Shown piece after piece: positions 6,373-23,854 of a stretch of 26,055 bases of DNA (its first letter is position 1; each line of letters opens with the position of its first letter). Origin of the DNA: a virus (taxonomy: Duplodnaviria; Caudoviricetes); IMG/VR virus record IMGVR_UViG_3300010206_000014, positions 1-26,055 of that record; one strand, written 5' to 3'. The position numbers and the translations under genes were made by a program. The notes below the pieces were generated by a model that was not told where the DNA came from, searched no databases, and was given only the letters and a program-made list of their open reading frames with translations.

Positions 6373-8449
6373 GCAGACCATCACGCAGCGCAGCTTCATG
6401 CTTGGCGAGCCGCGGGAGGAATTCCTTGAGGCTGATGACCTTGAGGTGCGCATGGCGTCCTGCCGCGAGGCCCGGAACGTCCGCATCAAGGCGACGCGGA
6501 CCATCGACCAGAAACTCGGGTCGCGCTTCAAGGAGGTGCTGGCCTCCGACGCGCCGCACTATGAGGTTCGGCCGGTCCCCGAGGAACTGTACCTCGTGCG
6601 GATCGAGAGCGGCAGCGTGACGGTTCTCGATGCCGACCTCGCGACGGTTTTCACCGATACGGTCACGCTTGGCGACCCCGATCTCGTCTGGGTTCAGGGC
6701 TTCCGCAAGAAGGTCATCATCGGCTGCCCGACCGGCATGTGGACGCTGACCTACGGGACGCCGTGGACGATGACGGCGTTTGCCTTCTCCGATGCCCCCG
6801 GCGGCGAGACGGCGCAACCCTACTGGTCGTTCGAGACCGGGATCACCATGCAGCCGTCGGCCCTGACCGGCTCGATCACGCTCACCGCCTCGGCGGCGTT
6901 CTTCACCTCGGCCTACGTCGGGATCAAAGTCCGGTACGCGACCCGCGAGATCCTGATCACCGCCTACACCAGCCCGACGCAGGTTACTGGCACTGTGGTC
7001 AACCGGCTGCCACCGACCTATCGGATCACCCTGGGCTCGACCTCGGACTTCCGCGTGGGCGATGTCGTCGTGGGGAACGATACCGACTTCAAGGGCCAGA
7101 TCGTCGCCATCGCGGGCAGCCAGATCGACGTGGTGACGCTGGAGTTCCTCGACGGGCCCGACGTGGGAGAGGATCTGTCCACGTCCTCGGCGTCCTCCGC
7201 CGTCTCGGCAAAGACCACGGTGACCCCGGCCGCGACGAACATCTGGGACGAGCCCCTGATCTCGCCCGTGCGCGGCTATCCCGGTTCGGCATCGGGCGCG
7301 AACGGCCGGCTGGCGCTGTGCGACTTCGCGGAGGCGCAGGATGTCGTCGTCCTGTCCTCGACGCGCGACGTGACCGACTTCCTCGTCGGGGATGCGGATG
7401 ACGACGCCATCGCGCGGGCCTGCGGGAACAACTCGCCCCGGTTCCTGCACGTCGTCGATGCCGGCGACCTGATCCTGCTGTCGGACACCGGGATCTACGT
7501 CGTCGAGTTGCAGGGCAACGCGGTCCTCTCGCCTTCGACGTTCGTGACGAAGTTCGTAGACGGGCGCGGGGCAAGCGCGGTCAACCCGGTTCGGGTCGAT
7601 GACGGCGTGGTGTTCGTCGAGGCATCCGGCCTCTCGCTCGCGGTCGTGCAACTGAGCGGGAACATCTACCTGAAGTGGTCCGTCCGCACGATCACCAACT
7701 TCCACTCGCACCTGATCAAGAGCCCGGTCGCGCTCTCCGGGCCGCCGCTGGTGTCGTCGCTGCCCGAGAAGTACCTGATGGCCGTGAACGCCGACGGGAC
7801 GATGGCGGTCATGTCGTGGGTTGACGGCTTCGACGCCGAGAACATCGGCTTCGTCCAGTGGGAGACCGATGGCGATTACAAGCGCGTGTTCCCGGCCTTC
7901 GGCAGCTATTGGGCGGTGACGCAGCGGTCGGTCGGCGGCTCGAACGAGTACCTGCTGGAGCAGTTCACCGATGCCGTTCTGGTGGACTGCGCCGTCCCGC
8001 TGGACGATGGGTTCGAGGCCGAGTTCGAGGGCCAGTCCCTCCACGTCTGCGGCGATGGCTGGTACTCGGGGACCGCGACCGTCACCGCCGGGCTGGAGAT
8101 CGAGGGCAGCTTCCCTGACGGCGCGGTCGCGGGGTGGAACTACACCTCCAGCATCATGCCGTGGCCGCAGGAGCAGATCCAGCACCCGAAGGCGGGCATC
8201 CTCGCGGCGCGGGTCATCCGCGTCGGGGTGTCCGTCCTGCACACCGGGCCGCTGTCGATCCGCTGCAACAGCATCACGCAGAACTTCGGCGGCTACTCGT
8301 TCGGGGATGACCTGTCCGCGACCGTGAACCGGACCAAGATGTACAAGACGAGCGTCATCGGGCGCCGTGACCATCCCGAGATCGAGATCATCAAGGCGTT
8401 CCCCGGAACCTTCCAGATCCTCGCCGTCACCCAGGAGGTAGTAACGTGA
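6365..8449 (+). CDS. Tail nozzle (T7 gp12-like tail tubular protein B)
   Basis: TTG start with SD GAGGT; Q.SF..GE N-terminal motif; GYP......GRL motif; beta-rich, about 694 aa. Confidence 0.88.
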   Translation: MAKQTITQRSFMLGEPREEFLEADDLEVRMASCREARNVRIKATRTIDQKLGSRFKEVLASDAPHYEVRPVPEELYLVRIESGSVTVLDADLATVFTDTVTLGDPDLVWVQGFRKKVIIGCPTGMWTLTYGTPWTMTAFAFSDAPGGETAQPYWSFETGITMQPSALTGSITLTASAAFFTSAYVGIKVRYATREILITAYTSPTQVTGTVVNRLPPTYRITLGSTSDFRVGDVVVGNDTDFKGQIVAIAGSQIDVVTLEFLDGPDVGEDLSTSSASSAVSAKTTVTPAATNIWDEPLISPVRGYPGSASGANGRLALCDFAEAQDVVVLSSTRDVTDFLVGDADDDAIARACGNNSPRFLHVVDAGDLILLSDTGIYVVELQGNAVLSPSTFVTKFVDGRGASAVNPVRVDDGVVFVEASGLSLAVVQLSGNIYLKWSVRTITNFHSHLIKSPVALSGPPLVSSLPEKYLMAVNADGTMAVMSWVDGFDAENIGFVQWETDGDYKRVFPAFGSYWAVTQRSVGGSNEYLLEQFTDAVLVDCAVPLDDGFEAEFEGQSLHVCGDGWYSGTATVTAGLEIEGSFPDGAVAGWNYTSSIMPWPQEQIQHPKAGILAARVIRVGVSVLHTGPLSIRCNSITQNFGGYSFGDDLSATVNRTKMYKTSVIGRRDHPEIEIIKAFPGTFQILAVTQEVVT

Positions 8450-9021
8450 CGCTCAGCAAGAATGATCGAGTCACGGTGGAACTCCTAAACACCCTGATCT
8501 CGTATGATCGCGCAACTCAGGAGATGCGGTGGAAAAATCGCCCGCTCCAGATGTTCCCTTCCGAGAAAACATGGAAGGCGTTCAATACAACTTTTGCCGG
8601 GAAACCGGCCATGGTGCGTGTTGATGCGCATGGGTATCGTATCGGCACAATTTCCGGGATGAAGTTCCAAGCTCATCGCGTGGTCTGGGCCCTGCACTAT
8701 GGATGCTGGCCTGACGGAGAAATTGACCACATCAACGGCGACAAGCAGGACAACAGAATTGAGAACCTGCGCGTCGTTAGCCATGAGCAAAATTGCCGGA
8801 ACGTAAGGAAAACAAGAAGGAACACGAGCGGGACGGTTGGCGTTCGCTTCAATCGTCGGCAGCGTTCATGGGTCGCCTTCATAGGAGATCAGGGAGAATG
8901 CCGTCACTTGGGAACCTTTGACACGGAGGCCGATGCTGTCTCTGCGCGTCTCTCCGCCGCCAGATCAAAAGGATACCATCCGAACCACGGGCTCCCCGTG
9001 GAGACAAAAGGAGCCGTATGA
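8446..9021 (+). CDS. Free-standing HNH homing endonuclease with C-terminal AP2-like domain
   Basis: AHR.VW, IDHINGDKQDNRIENLR and N..N motifs; NTSG..GV and HLG.F....A..AR; more AT-rich than its flanks. Confidence 0.92.
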   Translation: MTLSKNDRVTVELLNTLISYDRATQEMRWKNRPLQMFPSEKTWKAFNTTFAGKPAMVRVDAHGYRIGTISGMKFQAHRVVWALHYGCWPDGEIDHINGDKQDNRIENLRVVSHEQNCRNVRKTRRNTSGTVGVRFNRRQRSWVAFIGDQGECRHLGTFDTEADAVSARLSAARSKGYHPNHGLPVETKGAV

Positions 9022-9489: not shown

Positions 9490-12048
9490 ATGGCAACCAT
9501 CAGACAGATCGTCCCGTCGCAGCAGATTTCCGAGTTCCGCCCCGTCGCTTCAGAAGCAGGTGGCGGTTTTCGCGTTCTGGCGGGGGCGCTTGAGGAAGCG
9601 TACAACTATCTGCTTCCGAAGGGCATCGCGGAGATGGAGCGGCGGGGCGACGCGCTCGGCCGCGAGATCATCCAGCAGCAGATCGGAGACCCGGCGGGTG
9701 CGACCGTCACCAAGTCGACCGTCTCTGCGTCTCTGGCGCGAACCGAAAGCGGCGGCCGGTATGACATCGTGAACTCGGAAGGGTTCACCGGGAAGTATCA
9801 GTGGGGGCAAGGTCGCCTCGACGACTTCAACCGCGCGAACGGGACATCCTTCACGCTGGATCAGTTCAAGAACGACCCCGGCCTGCAAGAGCGTGCGCAG
9901 CAATGGCACGAGGGCGACATCATCGCGCAACTCGGCGGCTACGAGGGACGCGTGGTCAAAGGCATCACGATGACCAAGGGCGCGATCATCGGCGCGGCCC
10001 ATCTCGGGGGTATCGGGGGCGCCAGAAAGTTCATCGAGACGGATGGGGCTTATGACCCGGCAGACAGCAACGGGACAACCCTTTCAGACTACGCCCGCAC
10101 CCACGGCGGCGCGACTGTCTCTGCATCCACGTCTGGCGGCGAGACCTTCACGCCGACGATGCTGCGCGAGGCCGACGGCACGCTGACGGCGCGGCTGTTC
10201 GGCCCGTCATCGAACCCGATGATGCAGGCGCACGATGCCGCCGCCGGGGTCGCGTACCAGTCCGACGTGTTCCTGAAGGGCACGGTCGACCTGATGGCGC
10301 TGTCGGATCAGTTCGCCCTGAACCCGGAAGGCTTCCGTCAGGCTGCCGACGAGTATGTGACGGCGCTTGCCGATGCCGCCCCGGAGTTGTTCCGCATGGA
10401 CGTGCGGGCCGGGCTGGAGAAGGAAGTCCAGCGCCGGTTCCTCGGCATGGTGGACGAGCGGCAGCGCGACATCAGGCAGCGGGCCGCCAACTCCAGCGCG
10501 GCGCTTGCCGATCGGTGGGCCGACGATCTGTCGTCCGCGATTGTCGGCGGCGACCCGAAGGAGATCGCGGCGGCACGGGCGCAGTTGTCCTCCGTCCTCG
10601 CGGCGCGGGAGCGGCTGCCGGGCGTGTCGTGGACCCCGGAGCAGACCGCGAACTTCATCGCCAAGTCCGAAGAGGAAGGGGCCCGCCGGATCAAGACGGC
10701 GCAGGACGAGCAGACGAAGACGTGGAAGGATGCGCTCTCGACCATCGTCACGGCGGCCAAGGCCGGGATGCACGCCGCCGATGAGGCTGTTCTGAGCAAC
10801 CCGCTCGTCCAGCAGATGCTCCCAGAAGAGTGGCGCAAGGCGGCGTCCTTCACGATGCTGCGCGACGAGATGCCGTCGTTCATGGCGATGACCCCGGCGG
10901 AACAGGCCCAGGCTCTCGTCGACATGAAGGCGCAGCCGGTGACGGCGGCATGGGAGGCCGACCTCTACGGCGCGGCAGAAGAAGCCGCGGCGGCCAATGC
11001 GAAGGCGTGGCGGGACGATCCGATCAAGCGCGCTGGCGAGGTGCTGACGGCTAATCCGCCGCCGCCGCTGCCCGAGTTCGACCCGACGAACCCTGAGCCG
11101 TTCATGGCAGCCCTCGGCGCGCGTGCGACCTATGGGCAGGCGCTCGCGGATCAGGGCTACGTCGAGAAGCCGATCTACGTCTCGAAGGCGGAAGCCGTGA
11201 CCATCGGCGCGATGTTCGGCAAGGACGTTCCCCCCGAGATCAAGGCGGCGGCGGCCGGCGCGGTTGTCGGCGCCATGGGGCCGGCGGCGGAAGGGTTCTT
11301 CGGTCAGATCAGCACGACCGACCCCACCATCCAGCACGCCGGCATGCTCATGGCGCGCGGCGGCGATCCGGCGGTTGCGACCGAGATCATGACCGGGCAA
11401 TCGCTTCTCGATCAGAAGGTTGTGCAGGCCCCGACCGCAACGGCGGTCGCCAAGTCGCGGGCCGGCGAGATCGACACGGTGCTGCGGTCTCTCCCAGGTG
11501 TGCCGATTGCGCAGATCGAGAAGGCCGCCAAGGCGATCTACGCCGCCCGCGTCCCGACCGGCGCAGATGACGAGGAACAGGCCAAGGTGATGACCGAGGC
11601 GTGGCAGGCCGCGCTCGGGAAGAGCACGGTCCTCGGGCGCACTCTGGGCGGCATCCAGACCATAGGCGGGCACCCGACGCTCCTGCCGCCGGACGTGGCC
11701 GGTGAGGACGCCGACAAGGCCCTCTCAGCGGCGTTCGGGCTGCGCGACGTGACGGCATCCGAGGGCTTCGGGATGATCTGGCCCGGCGCGTCTGACCCGC
11801 GGGCGCCCGACGGCGGCATGTGGATCGAGGCGGCAGGGGCAATCCCGGTTCTCGGCGGGACCGTTCTCGACCCGCAACTGTTCGCCAACGGCGAGATCGT
11901 CATCACCCCGGTCGGCGGGACGCGGTACACGCTCTCGGTGAACCGGAACGGCGTGGTGCAGGACGTGCGCGCCGTTGGCGCCGAAGATGGCCTCGCCTTC
12001 ACGTTTGACCTCGAAAAGCTGATCGAGGCGTCTAGGAGGCCGCGGTGA
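9490..12048 (+). CDS. Ejection protein with a lysozyme/transglycosylase-like domain
   Basis: 852 aa, helical; residues about 80-205 contain ESGG.Y..VN..G..GKYQ, F..DP.LQE and AAHLGG motifs. Confidence 0.8.
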   Translation: MATIRQIVPSQQISEFRPVASEAGGGFRVLAGALEEAYNYLLPKGIAEMERRGDALGREIIQQQIGDPAGATVTKSTVSASLARTESGGRYDIVNSEGFTGKYQWGQGRLDDFNRANGTSFTLDQFKNDPGLQERAQQWHEGDIIAQLGGYEGRVVKGITMTKGAIIGAAHLGGIGGARKFIETDGAYDPADSNGTTLSDYARTHGGATVSASTSGGETFTPTMLREADGTLTARLFGPSSNPMMQAHDAAAGVAYQSDVFLKGTVDLMALSDQFALNPEGFRQAADEYVTALADAAPELFRMDVRAGLEKEVQRRFLGMVDERQRDIRQRAANSSAALADRWADDLSSAIVGGDPKEIAAARAQLSSVLAARERLPGVSWTPEQTANFIAKSEEEGARRIKTAQDEQTKTWKDALSTIVTAAKAGMHAADEAVLSNPLVQQMLPEEWRKAASFTMLRDEMPSFMAMTPAEQAQALVDMKAQPVTAAWEADLYGAAEEAAAANAKAWRDDPIKRAGEVLTANPPPPLPEFDPTNPEPFMAALGARATYGQALADQGYVEKPIYVSKAEAVTIGAMFGKDVPPEIKAAAAGAVVGAMGPAAEGFFGQISTTDPTIQHAGMLMARGGDPAVATEIMTGQSLLDQKVVQAPTATAVAKSRAGEIDTVLRSLPGVPIAQIEKAAKAIYAARVPTGADDEEQAKVMTEAWQAALGKSTVLGRTLGGIQTIGGHPTLLPPDVAGEDADKALSAAFGLRDVTASEGFGMIWPGASDPRAPDGGMWIEAAGAIPVLGGTVLDPQLFANGEIVITPVGGTRYTLSVNRNGVVQDVRAVGAEDGLAFTFDLEKLIEASRRPR

Positions 12049-14534
12049 CGTTCTTTCTGAAGCAGACCGAGCCCGCCGCCCGCGGGCCGGACATCGCCCC
12101 GCCGTCCAACGCTGACGGGATCGGCGCCGCGTTTCGATCCGCTGCCCGGTCGGTCAACCAGTACTGGAACATCGGCCGCGCGAAGGATCAGGAGCAGGTT
12201 CCGCTCGCCAAGACCGCGGCAGAGCGGATCGGGCTGGAGGCGCTGAACACGCACTTCGCCACCGGGGACACCGGCCTGATGGGCGGGGTGAAGCCGCCGC
12301 GTGCCGAGAGCGTGCAGGACGTGATCGACTGGTTCGGCGCCGAGACGGTGCTGGATCTGGCGCGCAAGGAAGCGCAGGCGAACCCGGATCGCTGGTCCGA
12401 CCTTGATCTGAGCGAGGGAGGCATCGAGGCGCGCACGCAAGAGCGGCTGCGGGCCGATGACGCGGCGGATGCCGAGATGATCGCGCTGTCCCCGGCCCCG
12501 ATCCGCAACAGCATCATCGGCTCCCTCGGCGCCGGGCTTGTCGACCCGGTGAACCTCGCGCTGATCCCGTTCGGCCTCGGGTCCGGTTCGCTTCTCCGTG
12601 TCATCGGCCGCGAGGCGCTTCTGGGCGCGACGGCAGAGGTCATCGAGTACCCGACGCGTGCCGACATGGCGGAATATCTCGGGAAGCCCGCGCCAAGCCT
12701 TCTGGAGAGCGCGGCCTATGGCGCCGTCGGCGGTGCGGTCCTTGGCGGGGCCATCGAAGGCATCCCGCGGGCCTTCCAAGCCTATCGCCTGTATCGGGAC
12801 GCAACCCGCGTCGAGAGGGACCGCACGGTTTCGGCCCCGACGCAGGAGGCCGCCATCCAGAAAGCCGAGGCGGCCATCGTCTCCGGGGGAGACCCGGTGC
12901 GCGCGGCTGCGGACGAGATCCTGCGCGAGCCTGCCCCTGCGCTGCGCCCCCTGATCCTCGACCCGTCCATGAGCGTCACTGCCCGGACGCCGGACCCGAC
13001 GCCGCTTGCCCCTGACCCCATCACGACGGCGAGCCTGCCGCCGCCATCTGAGCCGCCGGTCCCAGATGGATATGTGCGCATGTATCATGGCGGGTCGACC
13101 AAGGCAGATGGAGATCCCCTGCCAAATACGTTCACCACTGATCGCGCGCTTGCCGAGAAGTACAGCGGCGACGGGCGCATGTTCTATGTCGATGTCCCGA
13201 AAACGGCCGATGAGGTAGAAGCATCTGCAATCAATGATTTTCGGACTTCGCTGACGCGAACGCTCGACCCTGAGAAATTTGGCGGGGTCAAAGAGGCAAC
13301 CACTACAGCCCCGACAACCCCCGGCGAGACGGCGGCGCTGGCAGAGCGGGCGCTGAACGAGGCGTCGCCCAAGCCAGTCCCCAAGCGCGCCCTGATGTGG
13401 CTGAAGCGAAACGGTGGCGTCGATCCCGGTTCATGGTTGGCGAACGAACTGAAGGCGCGCGGCATCACGCACAAGAGCATCCCAGGCCTATTCCGCAAGG
13501 GTGGCCGGCGCGAGGTGGATAACCTCGTGGCCTCGGAGATGGAGGAAGCGATCCCCGGCATCTCATACCGGGCCGGCGTCGACAACGTCTACCTGAGCCG
13601 CGACGGCTTCATGGGCGTCATCGACGACGAGATCAGGGGGTATGACCCCGAGGCGCCCCGCCGAACCTACTCCCCCGAGTACCGGCCCGAGACCTCGTAC
13701 TTCGACGCGACGCCGGACGAGCGCGGCTGGATGGTCGACCTGAACCGCTACCAGTTCGACGACCCCAACTGGCAGGACCGGCTCAAGGGCGACTTCGACA
13801 CCTATCTGCGCGACAAGAGCGTGACCCTGCTGCCCCGCGAGTACGATGAGGTCTTGGGCATCGTACAGGCCCGTGGCGGCGATGTGGACGATCTGCTAAA
13901 CTCGGTGCAGTCGCGCGCCTTGGATGAGGCAGATTGGGCAACGCTGCGCGCGATGAGAGGGGAAGCCTATGGCCGTGCAACCGCAGACGAGATCCCGATC
14001 GGAGGCGAGGAAAGCCTGGGCGCAGGACCAGGTGGCGCGGGCCGAGGGGCTGTTGCAGAACCCGAAGCTGCCGCCCGAGATGCGGCCCAACCTGCTGCGC
14101 GTGATCGCGAACCTCCGGGCGTTGAACGGACTGCCATCGGAGACCAGTACCTCATCCCCGGCACCGACCGAGTAACGCCTGACACGCGGGCGCGGGATCA
14201 GGCCGAGATCGCGGCCCGGCAGATCCAGTCGAAGATCGGGCGGCTGAACCAGTCCCGCGTCGAGGATGACGTGGACGGCCTGTTCGCGGCCAAGCAACTC
14301 GACATCTTCGACAGCCTGAACGCGCCGGAAGGCCGGCGGTTCCTCGACGTGAACGTGCAGGCCTTGCGCGACATTCTGGACGGCGAGGGAGACATCATCC
14401 TCGACGCCCCGATTGCGGCCGACGATGGCCGGGCGCTGAACTCGCTGTCCGATGTGCTGGCCGAGATCGACGATGAGGACGCGCTGACACGCGAGTTCAA
14501 TCTGTGCCTGACCGGCGGGGGAGCCAAGGAATGA
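12045..14534 (+). CDS. Ejection protein, polyvalent type: membrane-like N-terminal part plus inserted ART-like domain
   Basis: 829 aa; DPVNLA..PFG and Gly-rich hydrophobic helices; YHG...FTTD...A..Y...FYVDVP insert at about residues 339-418; C-terminal Cys (NLCL) as seen in related ejection proteins. Confidence 0.75.
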   Translation: MTFFLKQTEPAARGPDIAPPSNADGIGAAFRSAARSVNQYWNIGRAKDQEQVPLAKTAAERIGLEALNTHFATGDTGLMGGVKPPRAESVQDVIDWFGAETVLDLARKEAQANPDRWSDLDLSEGGIEARTQERLRADDAADAEMIALSPAPIRNSIIGSLGAGLVDPVNLALIPFGLGSGSLLRVIGREALLGATAEVIEYPTRADMAEYLGKPAPSLLESAAYGAVGGAVLGGAIEGIPRAFQAYRLYRDATRVERDRTVSAPTQEAAIQKAEAAIVSGGDPVRAAADEILREPAPALRPLILDPSMSVTARTPDPTPLAPDPITTASLPPPSEPPVPDGYVRMYHGGSTKADGDPLPNTFTTDRALAEKYSGDGRMFYVDVPKTADEVEASAINDFRTSLTRTLDPEKFGGVKEATTTAPTTPGETAALAERALNEASPKPVPKRALMWLKRNGGVDPGSWLANELKARGITHKSIPGLFRKGGRREVDNLVASEMEEAIPGISYRAGVDNVYLSRDGFMGVIDDEIRGYDPEAPRRTYSPEYRPETSYFDATPDERGWMVDLNRYQFDDPNWQDRLKGDFDTYLRDKSVTLLPREYDEVLGIVQARGGDVDDLLNSVQSRALDEADWATLRAMRGEAYGRATADEIPIGGEESLGAGPGGAGRGAVAEPEAAARDAAQPAARDREPPGVERTAIGDQYLIPGTDRVTPDTRARDQAEIAARQIQSKIGRLNQSRVEDDVDGLFAAKQLDIFDSLNAPEGRRFLDVNVQALRDILDGEGDIILDAPIAADDGRALNSLSDVLAEIDDEDALTREFNLCLTGGGAKE
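13969..14175 (+). CDS. Nested +1-frame gene (68 aa, two amphipathic helices) inside the ejection gene
   Basis: SD GAGGGG 6 nt before ATG; 59 of 68 codons end in G/C, including 38 in a row, while the host frame falls to 16/38 over those codons. Confidence 0.65.
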   Translation: MAVQPQTRSRSEARKAWAQDQVARAEGLLQNPKLPPEMRPNLLRVIANLRALNGLPSETSTSSPAPTE

Positions 14535-17026
14535 GCGCGTACAACTGCCTTAAGGCAAAGGCCGCTGCCGGCGTCGTGGCGAAGCACAAGGGCGTCGCGG
14601 CCCTGCGGCGGATCAAGGAAATCCGCGAGGCGCTGGAAAAGCAGGGCGAGCCTCTGGCGACGGCGCAGGCCATGGCGGAACTGCGGTTCGCGGAGGAACA
14701 GGCGAACAAGGCGACCAACCAGAAGTGGCGGCTGATCAACCGGGTCCGGGTCATGCGCGAACTTCAGGCCCAGGTCGATGCTACGGCGCCGACGAAGCTG
14801 GGCGCGCTGGCGGTGAAGATGCTGGACGATGCCGACTTCGAGGCGCGCGGTATCCACAAGCTGATCATGGGCCGGGTCGGCGCGTTCATGGAGAAGCACC
14901 GGGTCACGCTGATGGGCGCGGTTTCGAACCCGGCATCCTTCCGCGAGTTCATGAAGGCGCTGCACGGCGAGGCGACCTCGGACGCCACGGCGAAGGCGAT
15001 GGCCGATGCGGTCAACGACACGAACGATTGGATCAGGAAGAAACTGAACTCCTACGGCTACAGCATCGGGAAGCTGGAGGGCTGGGGCATCCCGCACAGC
15101 CACAACGCGCTGACCATCGGCTCGACCCCGTTCCGGCAATGGGCGGATGATGTCGACGCGCGCCTCGATTGGGCGAAGATGGTCAACCCGAAGACCGGGC
15201 TTGAGTTCACCGCGGTCCCGCCGAAGGCCTATCGGGACGAGTTCCTTCAGGCCGCCTACGACAACATCGTCTATGGCCGGAACAGCAAGGCGCCGTCGTG
15301 GGGCGGATCGGCAGAAGGGAACGCCCTGGAGCGGCATCGCGTGTTCGCCTTCAAGTCGGCTGACGACTGGATCGCCTACAACGACAAGTACGGCTCCGCG
15401 GACCCGCACTCGACGCTTCTCCAGCACTGGGACCAGATGTCGCGGCACATCGCCCTGGCCCGCAGGTTCGGGCACGACGCCGGATCGGCGGTCGACTATC
15501 TCGGGCAGATCATCGCCAAGCGGAACCGGGACGAAGGCGCCGGGGCCGTCTCGGCGCTCAAGGGGCAGGGCGGCGCGGCTCTCGCCAAGGGCATGCTGCG
15601 CGTCATGGAGGGCGGCATCGGGCCGACTGGATGGGCCGGTGCCCAGAGCGCGCGGTTCTTCTCCACGACGCGGAAGGTGCTCACCTCGGCGCTGCTTGAC
15701 CGGGCGATTGTTGTCTCGGTCCCGTCGGACATGAACAGCGCCATGATCGCCTCCATAGCGATCGGCATGAACCCGGCCGGCTGGTTCCCGACCTACATCG
15801 GCTTGCTGAAGGACGCGGCTTCCGGTGGCGGGGCGACGCGGGCCGACCTTCTCCGGGCGCAGCACATCGCGGAAAGCTGGGCGAACCCCGGCGTCACGTC
15901 GTCCCGGTTCCAAGCCGAGTACCCGGCCGCCGCCTGGGCGGAAAAGGTCTCGAACGGGGCCATGCGCATTCAGGGCATGAACGCGCACACCGACAGCATG
16001 AAGCTGGCGTTCTCGTGGGGCATGGCCGGGCAGATGGCGTCTGATGCCGGAAAGGCCTTCGACCAACTCGACCCGCTCATGCAGCGCGCGATGTCCCGCG
16101 CCGGCATCACGGCGGCGGATTGGGACATCTTCCGGGCCGGGCCGAAGTTCACCGCCTCGAACGGCGCCGAGTTCCTCTCGCCGCTCTATTGGCAGTCGGC
16201 CGCGACCATCGACCCGGTTGAGGCTGATCGCATCTTCCGCGTGTTCCAGACATTCACCGAGAAGTGGACCGAACTCGCGGTCCCGTCGCGGTCGCTCATC
16301 GCGCAGGGCCTCATCGACCCGAAGGCCTATGACCTCGCCCCCGGCGGGCCGCTCTATGAGGCGGTGAAGTCGGCCGGGATGTTCAAGTCCTTCGTCGCGG
16401 CCTTCGTCATCAACCAGGCGCGGCTCTACGACCATGCCCCGACCGGCGCGGCAAAAGCGGCATATGTGCTGAGGCTCGTCGGGACCACGACCGCGGTTGG
16501 CGCGTTGGCGCTTCAGGTCAACGATCTCCTGTTCGGTCGCGACCCGCAGGACATGACGAACCCGAACTTCTGGTGGCGGTCCCTCCTGCGCGGCGGCGGC
16601 CTCGGGCCGGTCGGGGATCTTCTTGCGACCGGAGCGACGACCTGGGGCAGCGGGCTTTCCGGCTACGTCGCCGGCCCGATCCCGCAACTGGCATCCGACA
16701 TCACGAAGGCGACCTTTGGCAACGCTGTGCAGGCCTACCAGCAAGCGCTCAACGGCGACGACATCGACATCGACCTGATGAAAGAGATCATGGACCTCCA
16801 GCGCCGGTACACGCCCATGTGGCAGACGCCGATTGCGGCCGGCGGCGCGGCTCTGGACCGGATGATCTCGGACCAGTTCGTGCTGATGTTCAACCCCGGC
16901 GCCATTGACGACATGGCGAAGCGGGCCAAGAAGCGCGAGAACCTGTACGGCGGCGGGAACTGGTGGATGCCCGGCAAGGCGCTTCCGTCTCGGGCCCCGG
17001 ACTTCTCGACGGCCATCGGCAGATAG
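14531..17026 (+). CDS. Large ejection protein (gp16-like, 831 aa)
   Basis: ATGA overlap; W.IPH.H, H RVF.FK...DW..Y...YG, FKSF and GGG.G..GD motifs typical of epsilon15/BPP-1-type internal proteins. Confidence 0.8.
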   Translation: MSAYNCLKAKAAAGVVAKHKGVAALRRIKEIREALEKQGEPLATAQAMAELRFAEEQANKATNQKWRLINRVRVMRELQAQVDATAPTKLGALAVKMLDDADFEARGIHKLIMGRVGAFMEKHRVTLMGAVSNPASFREFMKALHGEATSDATAKAMADAVNDTNDWIRKKLNSYGYSIGKLEGWGIPHSHNALTIGSTPFRQWADDVDARLDWAKMVNPKTGLEFTAVPPKAYRDEFLQAAYDNIVYGRNSKAPSWGGSAEGNALERHRVFAFKSADDWIAYNDKYGSADPHSTLLQHWDQMSRHIALARRFGHDAGSAVDYLGQIIAKRNRDEGAGAVSALKGQGGAALAKGMLRVMEGGIGPTGWAGAQSARFFSTTRKVLTSALLDRAIVVSVPSDMNSAMIASIAIGMNPAGWFPTYIGLLKDAASGGGATRADLLRAQHIAESWANPGVTSSRFQAEYPAAAWAEKVSNGAMRIQGMNAHTDSMKLAFSWGMAGQMASDAGKAFDQLDPLMQRAMSRAGITAADWDIFRAGPKFTASNGAEFLSPLYWQSAATIDPVEADRIFRVFQTFTEKWTELAVPSRSLIAQGLIDPKAYDLAPGGPLYEAVKSAGMFKSFVAAFVINQARLYDHAPTGAAKAAYVLRLVGTTTAVGALALQVNDLLFGRDPQDMTNPNFWWRSLLRGGGLGPVGDLLATGATTWGSGLSGYVAGPIPQLASDITKATFGNAVQAYQQALNGDDIDIDLMKEIMDLQRRYTPMWQTPIAAGGAALDRMISDQFVLMFNPGAIDDMAKRAKKRENLYGGGNWWMPGKALPSRAPDFSTAIGR

Positions 17027-19023: not shown

Positions 19024-19380
19024 ATGACCTTCTACGAGTGGACCGCCGCCATCTTCGCCAGCGTGAGCATCTGGCTTACCGGCGAGACCGGGCGCGTCAT
19101 CGCTGCGGGCGGGGCCGGCGGCATCCTGCGGTGGGTGCAGGGAGAGAAGCGCCGCCTGCGCGACGGGGTTCTGGCGGCCGGGACCGGGGCGCTGTGCGCC
19201 ATGTACCTCTGGCCGGCCGTGTTCTCCGTCATGGGATGGGCCTTCGGCGCTCTGGAGCCCAGCACGGCAAACGTGGGGATGGCGGCGTTTCTGGCCGGGG
19301 CCAGCGGCATGAGCCTGGTCAAGGTGCTGACCGCGGCGATCGAGACCGCGGCCAAGCGTGGGGGAGGTGGGGATGCGTAA
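19024..19380 (+). CDS. Holin-like membrane protein (118 aa)
   Basis: Several hydrophobic segments; first gene of the lysis cassette; SD AAAGGGG. Confidence 0.7.
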   Translation: MTFYEWTAAIFASVSIWLTGETGRVIAAGGAGGILRWVQGEKRRLRDGVLAAGTGALCAMYLWPAVFSVMGWAFGALEPSTANVGMAAFLAGASGMSLVKVLTAAIETAAKRGGGGDA

Positions 19381-19483
19381 GCACAGGTCGCCGCTGCATC
19401 GCGTGGCGCGGGAGGAAGGGATCACCTGGGCGTGGATCGTCCTGATCCTGGTCATCTACGGAGGCGTGAAATGTCTGCTGTGA
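19373..19483 (+). CDS. 36-aa single-TM peptide MRKHRSPLHRVAREEGITWAWIVLILVIYGGVKCLL (antiholin or second holin candidate)
   Basis: GGAGGT SD at 19363-19368; overlaps the holin stop and endolysin start; below the ORF-track cutoff. Confidence 0.6.
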   Translation: MRKHRSPLHRVAREEGITWAWIVLILVIYGGVKCLL

Positions 19484-19968
19484 ACATCCCTTGGATCGAC
19501 GAGATGATGAAGGTCTACGGCCTTCACGAGATCCGCGACCGGGCCGCGCTGTCGAAGTGGCTGCGGAGCGACGGCAAGACGCTGGGCGACCCGGCCACGC
19601 TGCCGTGGTGCGGCGATGCCATGGACACCGCTCTCGCGCTGGCGCTGCCGGACGAGCCGCGGCCGGGCGATCTCGGCAAGAACCCCTATTGGGCGCTGAA
19701 CTGGATGTGGCTCGGGAAGTCGTGCCTGCCGTGCTTTGGCGCCATCGCCGCCTTCAAGCGCCCGACCGGCGGCCACGTCGGCATTCTCGTCGGGCACAGC
19801 AAGGACCACTACCGCGTCCTCGGCGGGAACCAGTCCGATGCCGTGACGAAAACGTGGGTCGCCAAGGACCGCTGCAAGGCGATCCGCTGGCCGGCGACCT
19901 TTGCCAATCCCAAGATCCCGCTGCCCAGCCTGAAATGGGACGGCACCGCCTCGGAGAATGAGGCATGA
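19471..19968 (+). CDS. Endolysin, NlpC/P60-CHAP-like (TIGR02594-type)
   Basis: PW...M...G..E, PWCG, R..GGHVG and VLGGNQSD.V motifs; SD GGAGG at 19460. Confidence 0.85.
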   Translation: MSAVNIPWIDEMMKVYGLHEIRDRAALSKWLRSDGKTLGDPATLPWCGDAMDTALALALPDEPRPGDLGKNPYWALNWMWLGKSCLPCFGAIAAFKRPTGGHVGILVGHSKDHYRVLGGNQSDAVTKTWVAKDRCKAIRWPATFANPKIPLPSLKWDGTASENEA

Positions 19969-20282: not shown

Positions 20283-20460
20283 GCCCATGGACGCGGCGAT
20301 CTCGGCCCCGTGCGACCGTCCTGAGGCCTTCCTGACGGCATCGGCAGCCGAGGTCATCATCGGGCGCCTTGGCGACGCTCTGGCGCTGTGCGGGCGCAAG
20401 CACGAGGCCGCGGTGTCCTACGGGGCCAGTCTCGCCGCCATCATCAACAGCCCGCGCTAG
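20194..20460 (+). CDS. Outer-membrane spanin lipoprotein (Rz1-like)
   Basis: Signal peptide with lipobox LPAC; PC..P and L..C..K motifs; overlaps the 3' end of the i-spanin. Confidence 0.82.
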   Translation: MPPRLTLALAACLTLPACASGPAGAPRRIEPMDAAISAPCDRPEAFLTASAAEVIIGRLGDALALCGRKHEAAVSYGASLAAIINSPR

Positions 20461-20468
20461 GAGGCGTC

Positions 20469-21563
20469 ATGCTCATCAGGAACCTCCCTCTCCATCTCGG
20501 CACGCGCGTTACCGGCGCAACCACCGGCCCGGATGATCCGCTCGTCCTCGGCACTGCCGACTATGAACTGGAGATTTCGGTCGATCCAAGCGGCGGCACG
20601 TTCTCGCTGTCGATTAGTGTCGGCGGCACCCCGGTCAGCGGCTCGCCGTTCCCCGTCACGGCCGAGCAACTTGCCGCCGATCAGCACTGCCTTATCGCCC
20701 CGGTCATCCCGAGCAGCGGCGCGGTCGGCACGGAGGCAGTCGGAACGGAGAGCCTGTGGATTTACAAGCCCGATCTGGCGCCTATGTTGCCCAGCCGCCA
20801 GTGGTATCGCGGCACGACAGCGATCAGCGGGGCCAACGGTCTGGCATACACCCCCGTCACGGCCGACGCTGGTCAGAACCTCAAGCGGCGCGACACCGTT
20901 GGCACGTCCTATATTGACAGTAACGTGATGGCGGTGGCGGCGCTGCCGTCTGGACTCGCAGCGGCTTGGCGGTCGTCGGCCAAGGCCACCGGCTCTGCAA
21001 ACTCGATCACCATTCCCGGGTTGGACTTTGGACCCGAGCATCCCGAGCGGGACATCGTTGCAGCTATTGCTTACATCGGGATCGGCAACAATCCCGCTCC
21101 CGCCGTCAAGATTGGCGGAGTAGATGCGGTGGTGGACAGGCAGTCGTCTGGTAACGGTGTCGACGCGATCATCTGTCGAGCGCGCGTCCCTACCGGAGCG
21201 AGCGGCAGCATCCTGATCACCGAAACGAATACGATCTATGCCGCTCAGGCCAGCATCTACACCGGGAGCAACCTGACGCCATTCCACCAGGCCTCCTCCA
21301 GTTCCCCGGCATCTAATCCGTCGATGACAATTAACACGCCGGTAGGCGGCCTTCTCGTTGCGGCAATTGCCTTCCAGAACTCCCCCAATCCGGTTTCTTG
21401 GACGGGGATTACCGGCCGTGTCGAAGTCACGGAGGGGTCCAACCGCTTTGTCGAGGCGGATGATCTGGCGACCACGGAGCAAACTGGGCGCGTGATCAGC
21501 GCACTTGCGACCGGCGCCACCGGTCACCGAGGCGCTGCGGTTGCATATTCGAAGGGGGCTTGA
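20469..21563 (+). CDS. Accessory virion-type protein with an Ig-like domain (364 aa)
   Basis: SD AGGAGG; QWYR....ISGA....YT...AD.G..L Ig-like motif; beta-rich C-terminal domain. Confidence 0.7.
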   Translation: MLIRNLPLHLGTRVTGATTGPDDPLVLGTADYELEISVDPSGGTFSLSISVGGTPVSGSPFPVTAEQLAADQHCLIAPVIPSSGAVGTEAVGTESLWIYKPDLAPMLPSRQWYRGTTAISGANGLAYTPVTADAGQNLKRRDTVGTSYIDSNVMAVAALPSGLAAAWRSSAKATGSANSITIPGLDFGPEHPERDIVAAIAYIGIGNNPAPAVKIGGVDAVVDRQSSGNGVDAIICRARVPTGASGSILITETNTIYAAQASIYTGSNLTPFHQASSSSPASNPSMTINTPVGGLLVAAIAFQNSPNPVSWTGITGRVEVTEGSNRFVEADDLATTEQTGRVISALATGATGHRGAAVAYSKGA

Positions 21564-21565
21564 GT

Positions 21566-23854
21566 ATGTCTAGGATCACCAGGCGCGTTTTGGGTCTGAC
21601 GGCAGCGACTGCGGTTGCCATTGCCGTCACTCAGGGCGGCATCACGGCAACCGGATCGACCAATCCGAACGGCTGGGGCATGGCGCCGCCCGATCCGCCC
21701 CCTGTCGGTGGCGATGGCGGCACGATCAGCATCGTTCCGGTCGGCCGCACCCGCCTGATGGCTGCGCCCGACACCGTGGGCTTCACCGTCGATCTGTCGG
21801 CCAGCACCTTCGACACCCCCGCCCCCGCGTCCGGCACCGACTACGACCGCCGGTTCCACGAACTGGAATACTTCTGGACCTTCGGCGACCCCGGCACATG
21901 GACTGCGCCCGAGCGAACGCTTCCTGCCTGGAAGAACCGCGACTTCGCCTATGGCGCCTATGTCCGGCACTGCTACCGCACGTCTGGGACCAAGACCGTC
22001 ACCGTCATGGTGGTCGAGCCTTCCAGCGGCAAGGTGGCGACTGCGACGCTTCCTATCTCCATCGACGATCCGAACACAGTCTTTTCTGGCGACAAGACCA
22101 TCTGCATCAAGAACACGGCTGATCCTGATTGGGGAAGCTATCCGGCTGGAGCGCAGCTTTTCAGCCAAGACAGCTTCGTGAACGGGGATGCGGCCTGCAA
22201 CGCTGCCATCGCCAAGTCAAACCTGTTTGGGTCTCGGGACAAGGTGCGCGTGCTGTTCAAGGCGGGCTGGACCGGCACCTTCCGTTGTGACATTTCCGGA
22301 TGGCGCAATCTCCATTTCGGCCTCTACGGCGGCAGTACAATCGCCACCCTTAATGCGGACGAGGTGAACGAGGTTCGGACTGGCGGCGGCTGGGGACAGT
22401 TCTACCAGACCGGGCAGACGGATAGCGGCGTCACCTATGACCTGAAATTCGAAAAGCTTCGCCTGAAGGGCACTTTCAGCGACACCACGATGCGCATTTC
22501 GGAGCAGGCGCATATCACCTACGGGATCAACCTGCGGACCAATAGCAACACCGTCGTCGTGGACTGCGAATGTGATGGGGTCAGCAATTTCTTCGCCACG
22601 TCCAACTTCGATCGGCTGGCGGTCACTCATCTGGACAACAACACGCTGACGAACTTCACCGGGATTTTCCCGATCTTCTGCACCTCGAACACAGGAACCG
22701 CCTATCAAGGCAGCCACGTCGCCATCACCGGGAACAAGGTCAAGCGCAGCGTGGACGCGCTGTCCGAATTTGCCACCGGGCCGCGATCTCTTGCCCGCCT
22801 TGAGCGGCACGACTGGTATCACATTCGCGGCAACGACATGTACAACTCGGACGGTGACCAGGCGTGCCTGCGCCTGCCTGACGCTGATCTGGATGGTCGC
22901 CCGCACTGCACGATCCACAGCAATGTGCTGGAGAGCACTGGGCTTACATCGTTCTCGATCTCGGGAAACAACGGCGGGCGCGTGGGGGCCGACCTCAACA
23001 CGCCGACGCAGATGCACATGCTGATCGACGGGAACATCGTCATCGGCGGATGGGCTTCGATGGACGTGGTGGATGTGAGCGGATGCGGCGCGACCATTCG
23101 CAACAACCTGATCTACGCCCCTGATGTGCCCTATGTGCGAAACCCGCTGCGGTCGCTCATCAGGATCAACAACCAGGGGGCAGCTTCGTACTTTGCCGAC
23201 TGGCCGGTGCGCATCTACAACAATACCCTGGTCTCTCCGGCCGCTCCGGGGAACAACAAGGGCACCAGCGTCAAGCCGTTCTACTTCCTCAACGGGGCGT
23301 CCGAAGTAGCGGCCTCCGCGATTGGAGTGGTTGAGCAAAACAATGTCATCAGCCTTCCGAATGTGGCTGTTCCGCAGATCGCCTTTGCGCCTCTCTCGAC
23401 CGACACCATCGTTACGCCGCACTGTGCAGGGTTCAGGCCGATCTACCACGAGATCAAAAAGACGCTGACGGTGGCAGTACCGAACGGCGGCAGCTACACC
23501 GTGCCGTATGATGGTGCATCTGAGTATCTGGCCGCCGGAAGCACCGAGCATACGTTGGTTTGGCTCGACAGTGTGGCTGGGGCGTTCACCCTGACCTTTG
23601 GAGCGTCTGATGTCACTGTGACCAACGCCAGCGGGACGCCGTGGGCCATCAATGCGGTTATGCTGCTGCGGCTGGTGAACGCCCCTGGCCACTACCGGGC
23701 CAAGCAGACGACGCATGCCACCGGCAACGTGCCGAAGTCGGCCCCAAGCCCCAGCTCCCCCGCCCTGACCGGCGGTGTCGCGCCACAGTCGCTCAAGACG
23801 CTGCCCGGATCGGACAGGACCGCTGGCGTACGCGGCGCCTGGAACCCGGCATGA
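21566..23854 (+). CDS. PKD-domain plus right-handed beta-helix protein (spike/depolymerase-like)
   Basis: YFWTFGD...H.Y...G...VTV.V PKD motif; repeated ITGN, IRGN, IHSN, IDGN, IRNN and IYNNT coils; ATG 21566 fits the SD better than TTG 21560. Confidence 0.72.
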   Translation: MSRITRRVLGLTAATAVAIAVTQGGITATGSTNPNGWGMAPPDPPPVGGDGGTISIVPVGRTRLMAAPDTVGFTVDLSASTFDTPAPASGTDYDRRFHELEYFWTFGDPGTWTAPERTLPAWKNRDFAYGAYVRHCYRTSGTKTVTVMVVEPSSGKVATATLPISIDDPNTVFSGDKTICIKNTADPDWGSYPAGAQLFSQDSFVNGDAACNAAIAKSNLFGSRDKVRVLFKAGWTGTFRCDISGWRNLHFGLYGGSTIATLNADEVNEVRTGGGWGQFYQTGQTDSGVTYDLKFEKLRLKGTFSDTTMRISEQAHITYGINLRTNSNTVVVDCECDGVSNFFATSNFDRLAVTHLDNNTLTNFTGIFPIFCTSNTGTAYQGSHVAITGNKVKRSVDALSEFATGPRSLARLERHDWYHIRGNDMYNSDGDQACLRLPDADLDGRPHCTIHSNVLESTGLTSFSISGNNGGRVGADLNTPTQMHMLIDGNIVIGGWASMDVVDVSGCGATIRNNLIYAPDVPYVRNPLRSLIRINNQGAASYFADWPVRIYNNTLVSPAAPGNNKGTSVKPFYFLNGASEVAASAIGVVEQNNVISLPNVAVPQIAFAPLSTDTIVTPHCAGFRPIYHEIKKTLTVAVPNGGSYTVPYDGASEYLAAGSTEHTLVWLDSVAGAFTLTFGASDVTVTNASGTPWAINAVMLLRLVNAPGHYRAKQTTHATGNVPKSAPSPSSPALTGGVAPQSLKTLPGSDRTAGVRGAWNPA

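Follow-up and report, generated by a model that had tools for sequence, protein, structure and literature searches.

Results

A small gene nested in an ejection-protein gene

The window, by which we mean the whole stretch of DNA analysed, is an entire 26-kb virus record with a podophage virion module that includes a portal, a major capsid protein, two tail proteins, internal virion genes (starting at 9018, 9490, 12045 and 14531), a tail fibre and lysis genes. The gene at 12045..14534 (+), hereafter the host gene, encodes an 829-aa internal virion (ejection) protein at the position of epsilon15 gp16, as judged by synteny and a weak match to PHROG 342 (E 2e-5). It is flanked by an 852-aa lysozyme-bearing gene and by a phrog_684 gene with relatives among phiV10, BcepC6B and epsilon15 gp17-like genes. 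The latter is the next ejection gene (14531..17026, +), placed by gene order and by its relatives: its product matches 108 deposited phage records, including phiV10, BcepC6B and one gene annotated as epsilon15 gp17-like. Because this neighbor is gp17-like, 12045-14534 takes the gp16 position as the middle gene of a gp15-gp16-gp17 trio, in line with the first-pass annotation of its frame as an ejection-protein gene. The window shares the gene order of the epsilon15, phiV10 and BcepC6B module, its gp17-like neighbor being about 25% identical.

Inside the host gene, the sequence confirmed an open reading frame in the +1 frame at 13969..14175 (+). Its ATG, spelled by host Tyr-Gly codons, follows by 6 nt a Shine-Dalgarno (SD) sequence, GAGGGG (13957..13962, +), which is written by host Arg-Gly-Glu and has a calculated pairing energy of -8.2 kcal/mol; start, SD and stop all lie within the other gene. 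The codon bias that had drawn attention to this frame proved exact: 59 of its 68 codons end in G or C, with an unbroken run of 38 (nested codons 16-53, 14014-14127) over which just 16 of 38 host codons do so. By comparison, such runs reach at most 16 in the other eight long genes and 13 in the rest of the host gene. The product (68 aa, 7.4 kDa, pI 10.7) has no membrane helix and is predicted to be soluble and to form a hairpin of two helices (10-29 and 38-52) with an NPKLPP turn between them (mean pLDDT 73 from a nine-row alignment), in line with the fold first proposed for it.

Profile searches retrieved 878 relatives of the host protein; cultured phages gave no match to it (tblastn included) or to the nested protein, and solved structures none to the host protein. 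Pfam, PHROG, Atlas, Foldseek (viral and PDB) and solved-structure searches assigned neither protein to a named family or fold. Pattern scans of GTDB gave no true relative, and in 7 of 401 sampled genomes of one class the matches were no more than partial. The nested product matched no known family, its best Atlas value was 0.78, and no fold matched at E <= 0.001. Searches for a free-standing homologue of its gene returned only nested family members or chance matches; gene callers did call two members of the hairpin family, both on short contigs, and these were the only called proteins to match it. No conserved RNA structure was found at the nested 5′ leader (z 0.0 and -2.3, with differing structures) or past its stop.

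In a model of the host protein built from an 86-row alignment, the core of the nested gene coincides with a linker (residues 641-689, 13965..14111, +) that is predicted to be disordered (pLDDT <50). Upstream lies a confidently modeled helical domain (about residues 560-637, 13722..13955, +; pLDDT mostly >85) with an RGGD motif, G611 and G612 being invariant across 86 proteins, and downstream a short beta hairpin. The nested gene fills this predicted linker almost exactly, while its tail and stop overrun an ExTxxGxQxxIPG motif (14124..14162, +) that alignment and model place in the predicted hairpin. Beyond it, host residues GLF...QLDIF (14277..14309, +) resemble a beta-clamp-binding motif, clamp binding itself being putative.

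Conservation and selection on the nested frame

The one close relative obtained as DNA, L001, has a host frame 48% identical to that of the window and shares the +1 ORF, the ATG of which is preceded by AGAGGAG at the same place. The nested products are identical at 29 of 50 positions (58%, E 3e-18), and over a 28-codon core the nested frame is better conserved (21/28) than the host frame (15/28). Upstream of the overlap, 18 of 30 nucleotide differences fall at host position 3; inside it, 11 of 28 fall at host position 1, which is the nested wobble position, and 5 at position 3 (p 0.059).

All twelve homologues at 43-52% identity keep the R-G-E that spells the SD; this tripeptide is invariant in 13/13 proteins, and the next two residues are Y-G in 12 of them and D-A in the other, either of which can spell the +1 ATG. 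Non-conservative host changes that keep the second codon base make up 27 of 70 inside the overlap; for the four scored flanking regions the figure is 182 of 928 (p 4e-4; 13 proteins). Among near-identical strain contigs, all four listed differences inside the ORF are at the +1 wobble position, three being silent in +1 and all four changing the host protein, whereas host position 1 accounts for 12 of the 44 host-gene differences listed outside it (p 0.009; three of the four in-ORF variants come from one contig of depth 3.3, four of whose six differences were listed). By eye, the loose ends of a further short contig continue the nested protein pattern without a stop. A scan of a single metagenome yielded five copies of a stand-alone module protein (see below), so the DNA evidence for the close clade consists of L001 and short contigs; the sequencing runs listed as containing the sequence included no RNA run.

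These patterns bear on whether there is a separate gene at all. The third positions of the +1 frame are the first positions of the host frame, which are G/C-rich anyway (71% in the host gene), and the ORF could in principle be a by-product of linker composition, the result of compensated assembly frameshifts, or one half of a programmed frameshift that fuses the two frames. Against this, L001 has the two frames open and in alignment with those of the window, the alignment of host homologues continues across the region in the host frame, the match to the likely source run contains no indel (not an independent observation), ATG and SD are conserved, and the +1 product outdoes the host frame in conservation; we therefore find it very improbable that no separate gene exists. 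Selection on the nested frame in relatives, seen both in the retention of ATG, SD, promoter word and product by L001 and in substitutions that follow the +1 frame, together with the recurrence described below, supports a separately initiated gene as first claimed, and we are highly confident that 13969-14175 is real. The accompanying claim of overprinting stands as regards nesting, whereas for de novo origin the case is no better than for engulfment of an existing small gene, which fits equally well. The searches gave no free-standing homologue, but it is the nested frame that shows the codon bias, and members of the family occur in host proteins of very different kinds.

A recurring slot before the ExTxxGxQxxIPG module

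Viral contigs were scanned for the host motif ExTxxGxQxxIPG, leaving the nested frame unused, in searches that returned 2, 14 and 101 loci. Once duplicates were removed and a minimum of 300 upstream and 90 downstream open host-frame codons was required, 34 loci were left besides the window; this count excludes 21 loci for which the fetched flank was only 300 nt. A locus was counted when it had a +1 ATG with an SD, 40 open codons, GC3 at least 0.2 above the host frame and a start 270-120 nt before the motif. Sixteen of the 34 large phage proteins passed, whereas among 752 windows of equal size at other places in these genes 21 did (p 2e-14; the choice of slot window and thresholds followed a look at the data, and four other settings gave 14-20 of 34), and the +2 frame passed in 0/34. 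The remaining 18 large proteins have the same module and failed the test.

The exclusive use of +1 has its explanation in codon structure. Shifted back by one base, a GC3-rich gene yields few T-starting codons, which leaves the host frame nearly free of stops and turns the overlapped host stretch into Gly/Ala/Pro/Glu/Arg/Asp filler; a tolerant linker is for this reason free coding space, which accounts for the use of +1 and not of +2. This holds whether the gene arose in place or was engulfed.

What occupies the slot varies. Cargo resembling the window's product was found in L015, L022, L044, L078, L080 and L089, the first five of which also have, by eye, a GG-x-ED-like stretch before the nested ORF, and apparently unrelated cargo in L002, L014, L049, L059 and L065. 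A profile of eight distant nested ORFs, picked by eye and excluding the window and L001, ranked the ORFs of the window and L001 first among the non-training ORFs of 11,392 (E 3e-4 and 8e-4). Hairpin-like ORFs also occur 644-887 nt upstream of the module, and many of the 18 distinct ORFs listed from control regions have the appearance of genes nested in other linkers, and two (L045, L056) are hairpin-like. Taken with the 18 of 34 failures and the unrelated cargo, the displaced hairpin-like ORFs speak against the proposal that the small gene cannot be unlinked from the injected protein.

The differing families at one slot, the nested-looking genes in other giant-protein linkers and the hairpin-like ORFs away from the module in L045 and L056 would all suit an accessory gene (anti-defence or DNA-binding, for example) that resides in the linker with no functional connection to the ejection protein. 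Yet the hairpin family keeps the same upstream domain and downstream module across proteins of 730 aa and of 1500-2000 aa, and the searches found no free-standing copy; we judge an independent passenger distinctly unlikely.

The slot is also visible in a deposited genome. In NC_023841.1, an unannotated 77-codon +1 ORF (L138 5053-5286; SD -9.5 kcal/mol) lies at the equivalent place in DVVG_00008, near the end of the gp16-position gene. A 2932-codon frame in a bacterial genome holds two +1 ORFs with strong SDs. BcepC6B gp16, unlike the window's host gene, has no nested gene, and GC3 in phiV10 and Piluca is too low for the test.

Several further observations concern the giant proteins and the module. 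Additional +1 genes with strong SDs lie in other giant-protein linkers, at motif-relative positions +1351 (L031), -1916 (L035), +904 (L049), +475 (L086), +664 (L091), and +1078 and +1624 (L101); nested ORFs of L049, L101 and L065 share a DPP...W..YL-like pattern, and for a likeness of one in L086 to TnpV the literature search gave no support. Stand-alone proteins of about 77-80 aa with two Q-x-V-I-P-G repeats and an SLF/TLF tail occur in L004-L009, L010, L011, L017, L019, L020, L023 and L071; they share the module of the ejection proteins and are possibly free clamp-binding peptides, a putative role. At 33 loci (L026, L033, L046, L061 and L069, for example), short phage proteins end in ELT..GEQ..IPGCE...QLDLF. 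Of these 33 C-terminal cases, 23 have a clamp-like word, Qx[DSEN][LMI][FLW], after the module, as do 18 of the 35 large proteins; among background windows the word occurs in 1 of 62. On the minus strand of relative G001 (L126), near 19300-19500, a small free-standing ORF of 54 codons, which immediately precedes a RadC-like gene, shows weak similarity to the hairpin profile (E 0.006, 0.17).

A candidate internal promoter and the lifestyle of carriers

An extended -10 (TG-n-TAnnnT) had been proposed upstream of the nested gene, in what proves to be the host helical domain. The word TGCTAAACT (13894..13902, +) is there exactly as described, on a rare CTA at host codon 618 (six long genes use CTA for 3 of their 317 Leu codons), but taken alone it is not above chance, with three TGnTAnnnT in the window against 6.45 expected, and neither a promoter nor a terminator turned up in a two-hexamer scan of 12000-14600. 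L001 has a counterpart, TGATACATT, at the same distance (-75) from the ATG, in which a rare ATA codon takes the place of the window's rare CTA. A host peptide able to encode an extended -10 is present in 13/13 RGE[AV]YG proteins and in 4/73 others: the former have L/M-[LIV]-x-S where most relatives have L-V-E-R, with Ser at the point where the -10 requires its final T. In a quick tree built on 40 rows, namely L001 and 39 of the 86, 12 of the 13 RGE[AV]YG proteins grouped with L001 as one clade (SH-aLRT 100), the thirteenth, a fragment, having been omitted. Across the slot sample, TAnnnT precedes 8 of 16 nested starts versus 107 of 519 control windows (p about 0.01), and TGnTAnnnT 2 of 16 versus 4 of 519 (p about 0.01). 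An internal promoter is thus plausible on sequence grounds for this clade and not as a general feature; from the candidate, the gp17-like gene at 14531..17026 would share the transcript, as the 12000-14600 scan showed no terminator.

The complete genome of L001 encodes an integrase, an initiator, a helicase and RecET-like genes, and this relative is temperate. Of 8 hairpin carriers, 5 have an integrase gene, among them all three that are at least 90% complete; so do 4 of 5 loci lacking the nested gene, and integrase presence therefore does not separate the two groups. Two complete genomes with nested ORFs of other cargo gave no tyrosine integrase match. For relative G001, the 21 ORFs scanned in the first 20 kb include an initiator and a helicase and no DNA polymerase.

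The promoter and the integrases together raise the prospect of a lysogen exclusion factor, expressed in the prophage from the internal promoter, whose soluble hairpin would block the ejection proteins or DNA of related phages. The equal spacing of the promoter word in L001, the clade-specific Ser, the TAnnnT excess and the integrases of the more complete carriers are all consistent with it, and there are partial precedents. P22 SieA is reported to be a prophage gene that acts on ejection proteins (PMC10883804) and shares with our nested gene a temperate podophage setting. In phage Fc02, the olg1/sie1 overlap yields a soluble 7.9-kDa protein, Olg1, that excludes phages (PMC9936078); the two are alike in being small soluble products of overlapping frames in temperate phages, whereas olg1 lies in the repressor region and our gene in a virion gene. 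Set against exclusion are the similar frequency of integrase at loci lacking a nested gene, the full extended -10 at a mere two of 16 starts, and the lack of a terminator up to 14600, which would carry a lysogen transcript into further late genes. Third positions are also about 60% diverged from L001, so that one retained rare A is weak evidence by itself. We rate exclusion unlikely, though the least so among the alternatives to the reading set out next.

Function of the nested product

Tentatively, and at somewhat below even probability, we favor a role for the small basic hairpin as a helper of the ejection proteins. The nested product would be translated from late mRNA, boosted in this clade by the internal sigma70-type promoter, and the hairpin would bind to the host protein, which is acidic, or to the neighboring DNA while the head is being filled; it may even be packaged in the virion, for which P1 Ulx and the T4 internal proteins offer analogies. 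We favor this role because of the late position in the ejection module, the solubility of the product and the charges of product and host: net charge is at least +3 in 14 of 15 nested products and negative in 14 of 15 overlapped host stretches (-5 in the window), a complementarity that is not independent support, since host Glu/Asp codons give Lys/Arg/Met/Thr in +1 and the pattern is partly forced by the code. The nested ORFs in the two complete genomes without a tyrosine integrase match favor it as well, as does E. coli GndA, a product nested in gnd that relocalises its own host-frame protein according to a preprint (bioRxiv 10.64898/2026.10.22.760973). By that account GndA is likewise an out-of-frame internal small protein, and a model for a partner role, but it is cellular, membrane-bound and controlled by an RNA thermometer, whereas our gene has no conserved 5′ fold. 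A late helper would need no promoter of its own, which counts against the helper reading; and as the cargo is exchangeable, absent at the slot in 18 of 34 proteins and lacking from BcepC6B gp16, a helper is not universally needed.

The adjoining module suggests a further possibility, that of an antidote: the hairpin would mask the ExT..IPG/GLF/QxDLF module, a likely clamp binder, and so spare replication by the host polymerase from ejection protein made late. The nested gene does abut the ExT..IPG module, a clamp-like word is present in 12 of 17 proteins with a nested gene against 6 of 18 without (p 0.044), and the first 20 kb of G001 offer replication genes with no DNA polymerase among them. 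But the same module is found in short or stand-alone proteins with no nested gene seen, unrelated cargo takes the slot elsewhere, and clamp binding is proposed solely on resemblance to a motif, which makes an antidote quite unlikely in our estimation. An extension that we hold to be equally improbable would make the RGGD domain, the nested hairpin gene and the ExT..IPG..QxDLF stretch a mobile three-part cassette of phage ejection proteins: the injected protein would carry a clamp-binding arm, and its neutraliser, or blocker, would be encoded with a promoter of its own in the linker bearing that arm, on the same bases, across many podophage lineages and unseen by annotation.

Relation to known nested genes

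Lysis genes provide the best-known cases of long overlaps among tailed dsDNA phages. Lambda Rz/Rz1 and phiX174 E-in-D are nested phage genes on the same strand, out of frame and with their own ribosome sites, and the gene described here resembles them in all these respects and in lying wholly inside a phage gene; it differs in being a non-lysis gene, on a predicted disordered linker of an ejection protein, at a slot with exchangeable cargo. BcepC6B gp23 and gp24 also overlap. Rz1-type spanins have a lipoprotein signal and are nested in Rz beside the endolysin; the nested product, which has no Cys or hydrophobic stretch and whose host is an ejection gene, is not of this type, nor is it an inner-membrane protein of the SieA type, its maximal 19-residue hydropathy being 0.39.

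Same-strand nested phage genes are therefore already known, and a gene in an ejection-protein linker is a new variant of them. Our literature search, which covered few subscription papers and no supplements, found no report of genes nested in such linkers; the words 'overlap', 'nested' and 'reading frame' do not occur in the main text of an ejection-protein review (PMC8954989), and passages of a podophage structure preprint show no nested ejection genes. What the present analysis contributes are the slot statistics, the hairpin family and the clade-limited candidate promoter. About half of the sampled large virion proteins with the module bear a small gene in one defined linker, the hairpin constitutes a new small-protein family, and DVVG_00008 of NC_023841.1 provides a testable case in a deposited genome. 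More broadly, low-complexity linkers of giant phage proteins may often be the shadows of unannotated genes, and a simple search rule follows, namely a GC3 swap to the +1 frame together with an SD and an ATG.

Other features of the window

Host residues of about 339-423 (13059-13313) form a lower-GC3 insertion that 12 close homologues lack; in P0007 another insert occupies this position, and part of the window's insertion recurs in P0024. The insertion shows a YHG...FTTD..A..Y pattern at low pLDDT and has no Pfam match; the pattern presumably recalls ADP-ribosyltransferase-like phage domains. Elsewhere, a low-GC HNH endonuclease gene (8446-9021) lies between a tail gene and the first internal virion gene, and an HslV-family peptidase-like gene (405-836) upstream of the portal. 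Two lower-GC genes past the lysis region (20388-23854) encode a 391-aa protein without a family and a 764-aa protein with a weak PKD-like match.
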